Source: Chiloscyllium plagiosum
Taxonomy: Eukaryota
Length of the DNA stretch: 64,000 bases
Direction: 5' to 3'
Assembly (NCBI RefSeq): GCF_004010195.1
Contig: NC_057719.1
Location: forward strand, 12,625,969 to 12,689,968
This document shows positions 9,694 through 60,149 of the stretch, one piece after another. Under the pieces are notes generated by a model that saw nothing but the letters and a program-made list of their open reading frames with translations, was not told the DNA's origin and searched no databases. Every line of letters begins with the position of its first letter. Within the stretch, counting starts at the first letter, position 1. Both the position numbers and the translations under genes were made by a program.

Positions 9694-11173
9694 CTGAAAA
9701 TGTGTTGCTGGAAATGCGCAGCAGGTCAGGCAGCATCCAAGGAACAGGAGAATCGACATTTCAGGCATAAGCCCTTCTTCAGGAATGAGGAAAGTGTGTC
9801 GAGCAGGCTAAGATAAAAGGTAGGGAGGAGGGACTTGGGGGAGGGGCATTGGAAATGCGATAGGTCGAAGGAGGTCAAGGTGAGGGTGATAGGCCGGAGT
9901 GGGGTGGGGGCGGAGAGGTCAGGAAGAAGATTNNNNNNNNNNNNNNNNNNNNNNNNNNNNNNNNNNNNNNNNNNNNNNNNNNNNNNNNNNNNNNNNNNNN
10001 NNNNNNNNNNNNNNNNNNNNNNNNNNNNNNNNNNNNNNNNNNNNNNNNNNNNNNNNNNNNNNNNNNNNNNNNNNNNNNNNNNNNNNNNNNNNNNNNNNNN
10101 NNNNNNNNNNNNNNNNNNNNNNNNNNNNNNNNNNNNNNNNNNNNNNNNNNNNNNNNNNNNNNNNNNNNNNNNNNNNNNNNNNNNNNNNNNNNNNNNNNNN
10201 NNNNNNNNNNNNNNNNNNNNNNNNNNNNNNNNNNNNNNNNNNNNNNNNNNNNNNNNNNNNNNNNNNNNNNNNNNNNNNNNNNNNNNNNNNNNNNNNNNNN
10301 NNNNNNNNNNNNNNNNNNNNNNNNNNNNNNNNNNNNNNNNNNNNNNNNNNNNNNNNNNNNNNNNNNNNNNNNNNNNNNNNNNNNNNNNNNNNNNNNNNNN
10401 NNNNNNNNNNNNNNNNNNNNNNNNNNNNNNNNNNNNNNNNNNNNNNNNNNNNNNNNNNNNNNNNNNNNNNNNNNNNNNNNNNNNNNNNNNNNNNNNNNNN
10501 NNNNNNNNNNNNNNNNNNNNNNNNNNNNNNNNNNNNNNNNNNNNNNNNNNNNNNNNNNNNNNNNNNNNNNNNNNNNNNNNNNNNNNNNNNNNNNNNNNNN
10601 NNNNNNNNNNNNNNNNNNNNNNNNNNNNNNNNNNNNNNNNNNNNNNNNNNNNNNNNNNNNNNNNNNNNNNNNNNNNNNNNNNNNNNNNNNNNNNNNNNNN
10701 NNNNNNNNNNNNNNAGGTCGGGGTGGAAGGTGTTAGTAAAGTGGATGAACTGTTCAACCTCCTCGTGGGAGCACGAGGTAGCGCTGATACAGTCATCGAT
10801 GTAGCAGAGGAAAAGGTGGGGGGTGTTGCCAGTGTAGCTGCAGAAGATGGACTGTTCCACATATCCTACGAAGAGTCAGGCATAGCTGGGGCCCATGCGG
10901 GTGCCCATGGCTACTCCTTTGGTTTGGAGGAAGTGGGAGGATTGGAAAGAGAAGTTGTTCAGTGTGAGGACCAGTTCAGTCAGTCGAAGGAGGGTGTCAG
11001 TGGAAGGGTACTGGTTTGTACAGCGGGAAAGGAAGAAGCGGAGGGCTTTGAATCCTTAGTGATGGGGGATGGAGGTGTACAGGGACTAGATGTCCATGGT
11101 GAAGATAAGGCGTTGGGGACTGGGGAAGCGCAAATCATGGAGGAGGTGGAGGGCGTGGGTGGTGTCCCGAACT
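9694..11173 (-). mobile_element. Penelope-like element, 5'-truncated, RT with stop codons, spanning the gap; 14-nt flanking duplication
   Basis: Minus-strand translation FTMDI*SLYTSIP...KGVAMGTRMGPSYA...FLCYIDD. Flanks agtccaataaaccg (9680-9693) and agtccgataaaccg (11174-11187). Confidence 0.9.
9933..10714. other. Assembly gap (782 N)
   Basis: Run of N. Confidence 1.
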
Positions 11174-13855: not shown

Positions 13856-13922
13856 CCTATTACCAGCTCTCCACCCAAATGGATGGCAGAACTTGAAAAA
13901 GATGATATTGACATGCTGAAAG
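13856..13922 (+). CDS. LIN52: LIN52 internal coding exon (exon 4 equivalent), phase 0-1, 67 nt: PITSSPPKWMAELEKDDIDMLK
   Basis: Long polypyrimidine tract ending ttttgtag| and donor |gtattt. The peptide matches LIN52. Confidence 0.96.
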
Positions 13923-14516
13923 GTATTTACTGTGTTTAATTTCTGTCTTAATTAACTGCTGTAAAATTCAGGATTGCTCTGAGCAATAAAACTAGGAGTA
14001 CAAAACCATGGTGCTATAGATGGGACCTGTGAAGAAGGAATAAGTTACATTTATATAGCACCTTTCAGAACCGTAGACTATTCTTGATCACTTTATAAAG
14101 GAGATGTATTGTGCAGTTATGCCTAACAATACTAAGGAGAATCACAAAGAACAGAATGTGTCGTATGGAGGTGAAAAGGATGACCAGTGCTGAGAAATAA
14201 TATGTTTAAAAAATTTAGTAGATAATTTAAACAAACAAGGAAAGGTTCATAAAAGAGAGAGTTGGGTTACGATAAAGAAAGGATTTGAAATTTTAAGAGT
14301 GGTTGTATAACAGTGATATTCAGATTTAGTATTAGTTTTCAGAATGAGAACATTGATGTACTTGAGAAGAATGGTTAATCAATCAATTTGGTTCTTTTTC
14401 AAATTAGCATAATCAAGGTGGCTAATTCTTTAATCCCTGGTTATGTAAACTCCATGCTGGAAGGATGTGAGAGGAGAGATAGGAGAAGAATTTATCACCA
14501 TTTTCCAATCGTCCTT

Positions 14517-15136: not shown

Positions 15137-15518
15137 CCTTAAATATGCAAGTTTTATAATATCATCTAAACTCTGTTTTAAAATTCGGACATTAACAATT
15201 TTCTTCAAATATATTTGTCATCATTTTGGTATCTCTGTCTCAGTTGTGAAGTCTTGCATTTTTTTTATATAGGAAGCTTGTAAAAATAAACGGAAATACA
15301 TGGTTTCATTGTGTTTTGCATAATTTTATTTTCAGAATGCTTCTTGTTCTGCAGTGAAAAATGTGTCATGCATATTTGATGTGGAGTTTAAATGAAAGTT
15401 CGCTTTAGACAATTTGTAAAGTTGTAAATTTGCACTTATTCTCACTCGCCTCTTTGAATATAAATTTAATTTATAAGTTTTGATGATCATTTCTATTCAC
15501 TATCCTAATTAAATGTTT

Positions 15519-15653
15519 AAAATCCCACAACCACCTGATGAAGGAGCAGTGCTTTGAAAGATTGTGCTTCCAAATAAACCTGTTGGACTATAACCTGGTG
15601 TTACGTGATTTTTGACTTTGTATACCCTAGTCCAACACTGGCATCTCCAAACT
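15519..15653 (+). mobile_element. Short PLE-derived element with a hammerhead-like core, inserted just upstream of the LIN52 acceptor
   Basis: Aligns by eye with 60039-60149. ATGTTT is duplicated at 15513-15518 and 15654-15659. Confidence 0.8.
15532..15566 (+). ncRNA. Minimal type I hammerhead-ribozyme-like motif
   Basis: cac-CTGATGA-a-ggagc(agt)gcttt-GAAA-ga-TT-gtg: intact core boxes, stem II with G-U pairs, 3-bp stem I. Activity untested. Confidence 0.55.
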
Positions 15654-15667
15654 ATGTTTGCTCACAG

Positions 15668-15751
15668 AGTTGGGAAGTCTTACTACTGCTAACTTAATGG
15701 AGAAGGTACGAGGCCTACAAAATCTCGCTTACCAGTTGGGATTGGATGAAT
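15668..15751 (+). CDS. LIN52: LIN52 internal coding exon (exon 5 equivalent), phase 1-1, 84 nt: (E)LGSLTTANLMEKVRGLQNLAYQLGLDE(S)
   Basis: Acceptor ctcacag| and donor |gtaagt. The peptide matches the conserved LIN52 C-terminal helical region. Confidence 0.96.
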
Positions 15752-17226
15752 GTAAGTGCTTGTTTTCAATTGGAAATCATTGTATGTAACTATATTAATT
15801 TAAGCTTGGAGTAGAAGAAAAATAATCATGGTTATAAATGCAGATGACAGACCATGCACTGCTTGGAGAACATAGTTGTTATTGACTCATGTTGAAGTTT
15901 CTTATAACAGCATTTTCTTCTACTCTCAGCCCTGTTCTCTTTTTGTTTGCCATACTGTCTCTGCATGTTCATGTTGATGAATTGGGTATGGCAGTTCCAA
16001 ATTCACTATTTTTAATTTGACGTAAAGATGGCAGCAAAATTAAGGTGTAGCCAAACCCTCCTTCAAATCTTGCTTAAAGCAGAGAAATGAAGATTATTTA
16101 TTTTTCATAATAAACCTGTGTTTGTGTTCACAAGGCTTGGCTCAAAATAGTTTAAATCCAGAAGACAGGTATCACTGACGTGTAGGTATTCTGCTTACAA
16201 ATGGAATTTAGGTCTTTGTATGCTCATGGGGTGAGGGGACTGTGAAGACTAGATATTAAGTCTGCTTTCTGAAGCCAAACTGTGGTAAGAGTGCAATGTA
16301 ATATGGATTAAGATTGTAACTATAGTATTAATATATTAATAATACTGCGTATGCCTAATACATTCAAGAACAGGTATTATTAGCTGAGAAGGTTTCCACG
16401 TACTGATGGGGGATGAGGTCAGGAACCAGTTCTTCCATATGTATGTTGCAAATTTTATGTCTGGTAGGCCCTGGCAATTATGATACCACAGGGACAAGCT
16501 AACACATAGTACAACTCAGGCATTGGGATGGAGTTGAGGATGGATAGTTAGAGTGATAAAAAAGGTGTGGGAGCTAAGTTTTTCAGTATGTTTGTGAATC
16601 TTGCATATGAGTATTTTGTATTGTGAAGAGCAGTCCTGGATTATGACTCCCATAAAAGATATTATTGGGGTGAGTGGCAGATATGGAAAAGGTTGTGTTG
16701 GTTAAAGAAAGATAAATTAAAAACCAGACAAACATAAACTTGACAGTGAGAGAGAAAATATTGACCTGATTGGGTCTTTTTATTAAATAGAATTTGTAAT
16801 TTCACCATAATTAAATAGAACTAATGATATTTAATGGTAATGCTGATGTGAGACCAATTGAAGATTACACAAAATTAGATATTGTCTTAATTGCAGAGTA
16901 ATATGTATCATGACTCACAGGAGGGTATGATCATATGGAGAGTATTGGATCCTGGGGATTGATTACAAGGCAGTAATTTAATTGAGCAGTTAGTTGATTT
17001 CCTAAGTTGTCAGAGCAGTGCTTACATGTGTTCAAATGGTACAAGAATCAAAATTAGATTACTGTGTTGACACTGTTTGCAGCAGCTTTACTAATGTGAT
17101 CAGTGACAGAAGATGTATTCCCTGTCAATTTGTGATGTGTTCACAATTAAGGAATTGAAGCGATTAGTAGATGTTAAGCAGGAAGTTGTATGACTAAATT
17201 CTGAGATGAGGCTAAAAGTTAAATTG

Positions 17227-44547: not shown

Positions 44548-44587
44548 AGATTCCTGAAGAAGGGCTTATGCCCGAAACGTCGATTCT
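44548..44587 (+). ncRNA. Minimal type I hammerhead-ribozyme-like motif (best-preserved copy)
   Basis: agattc-CTGAAGA-a-gggc(ttat)gccc-GAAA-cg-TC-gattct: stem I 5 of 6 bp, palindromic ACGT at stem III. Activity untested. Confidence 0.6.
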
Positions 44588-59190: not shown

Positions 59191-59945
59191 CTGGTTCTGT
59201 GGAAGGGTCACTTGACCAGAAACGTTGACTGATTTCTCTCCACAGATGCTGCCAGACCTGCTGAGCTTTTCCAGCAAATTCTGTTTTTGTTTGGGCCTTC
59301 TCTTACTCTCATTTTCACACACCTCACCAATTTATGAAAAATGTATTCTCACAAGCTTTAAGTAAGGCATTTAAGCAAATATTTATCTGTTAAATGGAAG
59401 TTTTTTCCTACAAAGATTAAGCCATGAGTGATTGCTTAGCTTGTCCTAAGTAAAGCAACATCATAACAGTGTTGGGAAACTGTTGACTCCTGACTGTCTG
59501 AAGAGGGATCTAAAAAGGAGAGAGATATTTTATCAATAGGTATGCTGTGGAGATAATCATGGTTGATAAAGGAAAACTGTGAGACCATTCACTGAAACAA
59601 AGGAATTACAAGTCAGCATCCACTTAAATAAATTAAATTTACTTCTTGATATGGCCTAGTGGAATGTTTTATCTTATATTATTACACAGGTTAATTTTCA
59701 TGGATTGAATGAACGAAGTCTGCTCTTAATAGCTATTCTGTGCATGCCATTGATGTGAAATTAATGGCTTTTATCAAGCCTCTTTTCATCAAGTTTGCAC
59801 TCCGTGTTCCTTTATTGAGATGGGCAGAAACATGCAAAAGAGGTGAGTTTTCAGTCCATATCACATGAGGATGTTAATGTCATAGTCTCAGCAAGAATAT
59901 GTCAAAGAGGTATAGGTGAGTATGCATGAACTCCCATAAGAGGTC

Positions 59946-60149
59946 AAAGTTAAAAATCACACAACACCAGGTTATAGTCCAACAGGTTTAATTGGAAGCA
60001 CTAGCTTTTGGAGCGCTGCTTCTTCATCAGGTGGTTGTGCAGTGCTCCGAAAGCCAGTGCTTCCAACTAAACCTGTTGGACTATAACCCGGTGTTGTGTG
60101 ATTTTTAAACTTTGTACACCCCAGTCCAACACCGGCATCTCCAAATCAT
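59946..60149. mobile_element. PLE-derived element with inverted duplication (hairpin 59946-60113)
   Basis: Arms of about 74 nt are near reverse complements; same family as 15519-15653; gaggtca repeated in the flanks. Confidence 0.85.

Follow-up and report, generated by a model that had tools for sequence, protein, structure and literature searches.

A probable Penelope-like repeat fragment 14 nt upstream of a conserved, normally spliced LIN52 exon in Chiloscyllium plagiosum

The LIN52 exon and its neighborhood

The window, the whole 64,000-nt stretch of Chiloscyllium plagiosum DNA analyzed here, contains part of LIN52, a core cell-cycle gene, on the plus strand. An 84-nt exon at 15668-15751 (+, phase 1-1) is identified as LIN52 coding sequence by homology, by GT-AG borders, and by spliced evidence. 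The LIN52 chain in PDB entry 6c48_B has 68 residues, and the exon aligns with residues 24-50 of it (E 3e-12); Pfam PF10044 is matched as well. Of 27 residues compared with human LIN52, 26 agree, and in organism C the exon has one substitution. Entry 6C48 is the structure of the LIN9-LIN52 helices binding B-Myb, and the exon encodes part of the LIN52 C-terminal region solved there (10.1101/788265).

Upstream of 15668 the window has three further exons, whose products match LIN52 proteins of sharks and rays at 96-100%. The one spliced to the 84-nt exon, 13856-13922 (+, 100%, donor GT at 13923), has ends set by spliced contigs, and its numbering as exon 4 assumes one unlocated first coding exon. 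The next and last exon, exon 6, lies outside the window, about 62 kb further (G000:C10:12703605). Because exon 6 starts with CA, the reading frame would be preserved if the 84-nt exon were skipped, which bears out a claim of an earlier note on this DNA and fits the 1-1 phase. The last LIN52 exon (L034) adds two further residues after KK before the stop. Annotated shark and ray isoforms retrieved with the 84-nt exon as query (P0006, P0041, P0058, P0064, P0074, and P0088) diverge after it; thus, LIN52 variation seems to be located at the following intron. A run of 782 N fills 9933-10714 in the preceding LIN52 intron. Elsewhere, locus L033 (G000:C87927:4533-4748) gives a weak LIN52 profile match (E 5.4) with two stops, either a chance match or an old pseudogene.

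Anatomy of the insertion

The hexamer ATGTTT occurs twice in front of the exon, at 15513-15518 and 15654-15659 (both +), and brackets a 135-nt repeat copy at 15519-15653 (+). It is a piece of the terminal repeat (pLTR type) of a family that is abundant and probably Penelope-like. The right hexamer is followed by 8 host nt that end in AG at 15666-15667, the insert stopping 14 nt before the exon, and this segment (15654-15667, +, ending CAG) is the acceptor used in every spliced contig seen. The coordinates agree with those of the earlier note, which had described an insert of about 135 nt between duplicated ATGTTT at this distance from the LIN52 exon.

The note had also claimed homology to 60039-60149. 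This holds for 15546-15651 (87%, extending to 60145), whereas the 5' part of the insert instead matches the opposite strand, 60039-59945, at 88%. The segment 59945-60145 is a second insertion of the same family, in the next LIN52 intron; it is an inverted pair whose complete hammerhead half is on the minus strand only, antisense to LIN52. At the insert, 15513-15531 matches 59947-59965, the start of this natural inverted piece, at 16 of 19 positions, and 15515-15531 (-) is probably a very short inverted piece joined to the direct copy via CACAAC.

The ATGTTT duplication is present as claimed, but its reading as a target duplication is qualified on two counts. It is only 6 nt long, whereas 11 of 29 other copies, chosen for likeness to the insert, have flanking duplications of 11-17 nt in a search from 7 nt upward. 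In addition, both halves overlap element-like letters, because the family ends ATG-like (at the equivalents of 15654-15656, A in 25, T in 22, and G in 16 of 29 copies; copies end YCAT) and 15513-15531 resembles the inverted start, with which the left hexamer shares partial microhomology.

With the insert removed, the adenosine of CTAAT (15505-15509, +; A15508) stands at -19 from the acceptor. This empty site, reconstructed in the earlier note, would still be the simplest. A15508, the probable pre-insertion branch point, is now at -160, again as that note had it. CTRAY occurs in 6% of 18-nt windows of the same intron, and any yUnAy in 32%.

Identity of the repeat family

The genome contains 37,545 exact matches to a 27-mer from the insert, against 0 for the reversed control, which puts the family at 37,545 copies at least. 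The insert deviates from the majority of its 29 best copies at 12 of 131 positions; those copies deviate at 3-14. The intact family hammerhead motif has 3,374 exact genome occurrences, and the motif in the insert is not among them. In 12 of 12 longer loci, the terminal repeat with its minimal hammerhead has the motif behind an upstream body, in some with substitutions. Two longer copies (L043 and L047) contain broken frames resembling reverse transcriptase, then GIY-YIG nuclease. The YIDD of a frame in L043, upstream of the endonuclease-like frame, is presumably a reverse transcriptase motif. For the endonuclease-like frame, the Atlas placed 16 of 30 matches in a set with PF01541 on 40% of its members (score 0.95, 187 shared features), which serves as a lead; Pfam gave no match for 5 of 5 ORF pieces of longer copies, and the PDB gave no relevant match.

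Copies of Penelope-like elements are truncated at the 5' end, and an inverted partial repeat often accompanies them. The present family shows this hallmark: an opposite-strand match adjoins 14 of 39 other scored copies, and the 59945-60145 pair has the same arrangement. Opposite-strand pairs have been reported for Penelope-like copies (PMC4209133). Given its hammerhead-bearing terminal repeat and frequent inverted neighbors, the family is likely Penelope-like. The retroelement origin proposed in the earlier note is supported.

The LIN52 introns also carry a second hammerhead-bearing repeat family, at 44554 (+), at 9782, 17351, 31209, 42265, and 43851 (-), and at L037 5573 (-). The copy at 44554 is in the sense orientation; its core, stem II, and ACGT palindrome all look intact, and it would be a better candidate for activity than the 15532-15566 motif of the insert. 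Upstream of the window (L037 4810, +; 1280, -) there is yet another hammerhead-like repeat type, the third, in which stem II is longer.

Presence in related species

Contigs of organism B (X10 and X16) span 15150-15552 and reach 34 nt into the element; they differ at 13 letters and have a 3-nt gap. A contig of organism C (X11) spans 15615-16000 and contains 39 nt of the element, with 6 differing letters and one gap. X5, another run of organism A, shows no difference across 15150-15552. The comparison drew on 8 of 24 runs; repeat depth masked differences within the element in organisms B and C, where the hammerhead region was not readable.

The earlier note had proposed a search for the empty site in relatives. 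None was found among the species compared, organisms B and C both carrying the insert at the same site. A metagenome scan for the LIN52 exon gave 0 matches. Three species that differ from one another by about 2-3% in this intron share the insert; the insertion thus predates their split and is old and tolerated, not a fresh lesion.

At 15505, the first base of CTAAT, organism B reads A (X10 and X16; one contig per run, at depth 9.3 of 17.2 and 14.4 of 30.9), and organism C retains C. The remaining depth in organism B possibly comes from repeat contigs or a second allele. Upstream of the insert, 15371-15439 has no cover in organism C while one contig appears to run on at both sides, suggesting a probable deletion of about 70 nt.

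The hammerhead motif

The insert carries a decayed minimal type I hammerhead at 15532-15566 (+). The core boxes are intact (CTGATGA, 15535-15541; GAAA, 15556-15559), and the predicted cut is after 15563, position 17, as in the earlier note. Cleavage triplets of hammerheads follow the NUH rule. In the insert, U16.1 is kept with an H at position 17, the triplet being AUU here versus CUA in the family.

The helices have fared less well than the core. T at 15554 and 15555 creates two G-U pairs (10.1-11.1 and 10.2-11.2) at the base of stem II, which is predicted at -1.4 versus -5.8 kcal/mol in intact copies, with a probability of 0.00 alone and 0.000-0.004 in context. Position 11.1 (15555), a CpG site, is C in 12 and T in 16 of 28 other copies. 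The G10.1-C11.1 pair, described as highly conserved (PMC4209133), and a stable helix II are thus both missing from the insert. Two further changes lie nearby: 15561 is A (C in 28 of 29 copies), which turns the AGCT palindrome into AGAT, and 15563 is T (A in 25 of 29 copies). The helix III duplex is predicted at +0.8 kcal/mol with itself and +0.2 with a family partner, versus -4.5 for the family. The earlier note had suggested that the broken stem III palindrome might leave the motif inactive; this is supported, and stem II is predicted to be lost as well.

Stem I is 3 bp, and the motif has neither a palindromic helix III nor a dimer partner. No second complete sense copy of the family was found in 93,032 bases around LIN52: the 59945-60039 and L037 copies are antisense, 60039-60145 is without the 5' half, and a weak 73% match (L036) fails the descriptor. 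An Rfam scan of the window gave 5 matches at E up to 10, none to a hammerhead family, a result that is uninformative for minimal motifs. Intact single minimal Penelope-like hammerheads did not cleave in vitro, and dimers cleaved weakly (PMC4209133). The anole motif requires its protein for cleavage (PMC11167929), and 1 of 9 frog retrozyme dimers cleaved (10.64898/2026.07.22.740005). Activity of 15532-15566 is very unlikely because stem II and helix III are predicted to be lost and there is no sense partner, and such motifs need dimers or protein.

Splicing of the exon

The joint 13922>15668 (GT..AG) is present in contigs of X17 and X9 (organism A) and X19 (organism B), at depths of 4.7, 21.9, and 15.8. 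These are three studies of two species, whose RNA origin is guessed or not on record and whose contigs are spliced. On its short side, the X17 joint extends over just 28 letters. X9 and X19 each have one contig (4,024 nt and 511 nt) that joins the end of exon 3, both exons, and the start of exon 6 and is unbranched through the 84-nt exon. The stretch 15262-15477 is covered by no RNA-like contig. No joint from a cryptic AG or from skipping was found in the three contig sets, in which rare forms would drop out, and no loose end behind 13922 appeared among the rows listed (18 of 31). Of the junctions singled out in the earlier note, these contigs show the normal one, and its suggestion of partial skipping or cryptic AG use is not supported. 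The only other row of the two-row joint table, 14960>15078 (CG..AC, X17 only), is not a splice.

That note had also pointed to new AGs behind the displaced adenosine, for example at 15626-15630. There are indeed five between A15508 and the acceptor (G at 15543, 15546, 15549, 15560, and 15630; 124, 121, 118, 107, and 37 nt from the acceptor), and use of any of them would shift the frame into stops. The nearest, at 37 nt, is comparable to the nearest upstream AGs of three other LIN52 acceptors (41, 30, and 32). The pyrimidine tract is poor, as the note had said, with 10 of 17 versus 12-14 of 17 at other LIN52 acceptors. Because the count with the insert removed is 9 of 17, this weakness is a property of the host sequence, not an effect of the insert.

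Two further possibilities were rejected. The CAG of the acceptor and the following AG are 2 nt apart, not 3, and do not form a NAGNAG acceptor. A U12 intron, suggested by TCCTAAT, was rejected on the donor GTATTTA, which is taken not to be the U12 consensus.

Branch-point candidates and a hairpin in the element

All intronic bases from -15 to -149 are derived from the element. The usual branch-point zone is 18-35 nt from the acceptor (PMC5378181), and any branch point in that zone must therefore be element sequence. A branch point supplied by the transposon, one of the options raised in the earlier note, is supported to this extent, through candidate adenosines. No clean yUnAy lies between -15 and -45. 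Of the nine adenosines there, the A15649-A15651 cluster (15646-15652, +; -19 to -17), which is without a U at -2, has the top score (4 of 6) in a ranking by a crude count of U2 pairing. On this count A15508 and A15499 score 4.5, and A15615, A15444, A15651, and A15464 score 4; only A15651 of these lies in the usual zone. A15649-A15651 would be the main branch point at somewhat better than even chances. An adenosine further inside the element, A15615 of TTGAC (15612-15616, +; -53), is a distinctly less probable choice; in 28 of 29 family copies the neighboring position 15614 is A, and a TAG 15 nt downstream is borderline in distance. AGs within 12-15 nt of a branch point can be bypassed (PMC1431707, PMC9284458). 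Mixed use of branch points is possible, and an upstream site as the main one is improbable.

This TAG (15628-15630) is buried in a predicted hairpin at 15581-15637 (+) with 10-bp arms, 15581-15590 and 15628-15637. The pairs have probabilities of 0.80-1.00 in 5 of 5 window sizes, and the TAG is unpaired with a probability of 0.00-0.01. The fold has a z of -1.97, and 6 of 200 shuffles are equally good. Nine of the ten pairs are family-wide and near invariant, without covariation, and T at 15628 (6 of 29 copies) adds the tenth; thus, the hairpin came with the element.

The distant branch point that the earlier note had offered as another option is not supported. In verified cases, a distant branch point is accompanied by an AG-free zone and by a pyrimidine tract next to it (PMC1431707); A15508 is followed by the five AGs and by just 11 pyrimidines in 20 nt, and the base at -3 from it (15505) is changed in organism B.

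Comparison with known systems

Penelope-like repeats with minimal hammerheads are already known and widespread (PMC4209133). The family resembles the terminal-repeat hammerheads described there and in the anole Poseidon PAc (PMC11167929) in its core boxes, an extra nucleotide after A9, a 5-bp helix II, a palindromic helix III, solitary truncated copies, opposite-strand pairs, and an AT-rich target. The 15532-15566 copy differs from them in its G-U pairs at 10.1-11.1 and 10.2-11.2 and in having no palindrome. Like the RECK and DTNB hammerheads (PMC6155905) and the CPEB3 ribozyme (PMC10919898), the motif lies on the sense strand of an intron. Unlike these, which are conserved across amniotes or mammals and, for CPEB3, active, it is decayed and shows no sign of constraint.

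As in transposons that supply splice signals (PMC7951965), the element fills the branch-point zone of an exon. The cases in that paper are mostly new pseudoexons activated by mutation, whereas the LIN52 exon is old and conserved and has kept its own AG and last 14 nt. With exons that use distant branch points (PMC1431707, PMC5378181), the locus shares a good branch consensus more than 100 nt from the acceptor; it differs from them in lacking the AG-free zone and adjacent tract and in that CTAAT is not conserved in organism B.

Closest in position are fixed elements near acceptors (PMC3088655), which are likewise short, truncated, fixed, and less than 20 nt from the acceptor, but the data there come from SINE, LINE, LTR, and DNA elements of human and mouse and do not concern Penelope-like repeats of a cartilaginous fish. 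Mammalian acceptors have fewer elements than expected in the adjoining 20 nt (of 30 full-length Alus located within 20 bp of an exon, 3 were near the acceptor), and elements close to exons more often become part of chimeric transcripts (PMC3088655). In the present genome, family 3' ends precede an acceptor-like YYYNCAGG at 58 places; none of the 30 inspected is an evident coding exon, and of 23 peptides one gave a weak Pfam match (E 0.033, below the cut-off), the LIN52 control being matched. This search misses short exons and other acceptors and carries no claim of uniqueness, but such placements appear uncommon. Among the papers listed in the literature searches, none concerned the LIN52 insertion locus; the family may appear in the supplements of PMC4209133 or the retrozyme preprint.

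Interpretation

Together, the findings quite probably describe a tolerated, old 135-nt Penelope-like fragment 14 nt before a normally spliced LIN52 exon, with a hammerhead predicted to be dead and with the 3' end of the element as the likely source of the branch point. The element would have inserted at an AT(G) target, sparing the last 14 nt of the host intron. Branch formation would then have moved from A15508 to an adenosine of the element, perhaps helped by the hairpin, which could hide the competing TAG at 15628-15630. The allele would have been tolerated and fixed, and the ribozyme would have decayed as in other copies.

The hairpin could also be read as a bridge that loops out 57 nt and hides the TAG at 15630, leaving A15508 or an adenosine at about 15577-15593 to serve as the branch point. 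Its robustness in all five folds, the tenth pair given by 15628, and the consensus of A15508, the best match, favor such an arrangement, and RNA structure is known to bridge branch point and AG (PMC5378181, PMC3239191). But four of the AGs (15543-15560) lie outside the hairpin, the tract behind A15508 is poor, A15508 itself is predicted to be paired (unpaired 0.07-0.09), 15505 is A in organism B, and the hairpin is a trait of the family that was not selected at LIN52, which together make the bridge improbable. Only slightly less so is a weakened acceptor that regularly yields a minor isoform, by in-frame skipping of 28 codons or by use of the frameshifting AG at 15630. The weak tract, the five new AGs, the in-frame skip, and the enrichment of near-exon elements in chimeric transcripts (PMC3088655) would fit such an isoform, and decay could hide products that run into stops; the contig sets hold solely the normal joint, two contigs pass unbranched through the exon, and its peptide is nearly that of human LIN52.

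Least probable by far is an active or co-opted hammerhead that cuts LIN52 pre-mRNA after 15563 in competition with splicing, as the earlier note had envisaged and as the CPEB3 ribozyme might suggest (PMC10919898). The intact sense-strand core with U16.1 and possible help from cellular factors (PMC4209133) speak for it, but stem II is not predicted to form and the palindrome is lost in a copy whose stem I is 3 bp and which has no complete sense partner in 93,032 bases, while 3,374 copies elsewhere keep the motif intact. The preferred reading, a tolerated fragment with a dead hammerhead, might be extended to an element that survived at the most hazardous place of an intron because it is splice-neutral by design, its hairpin hiding an AG, shortening the path, and bringing or bridging the branch point, with the LIN52 exon now dependent on element structure. 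This extension is speculative and unlikely, though a shade less so than the bridge or the minor isoform, and no such co-option was found in the literature searched. Survival so near the acceptor might reflect more than drift, because such elements are depleted in mammals (PMC3088655).

The insert is uncommon in position and ordinary in kind, and it offers no sign that a ribozyme regulates LIN52. It amounts to a natural experiment in which the whole branch-point zone of a conserved exon has been replaced while the old AG is still used, which points to loose branch-point requirements.
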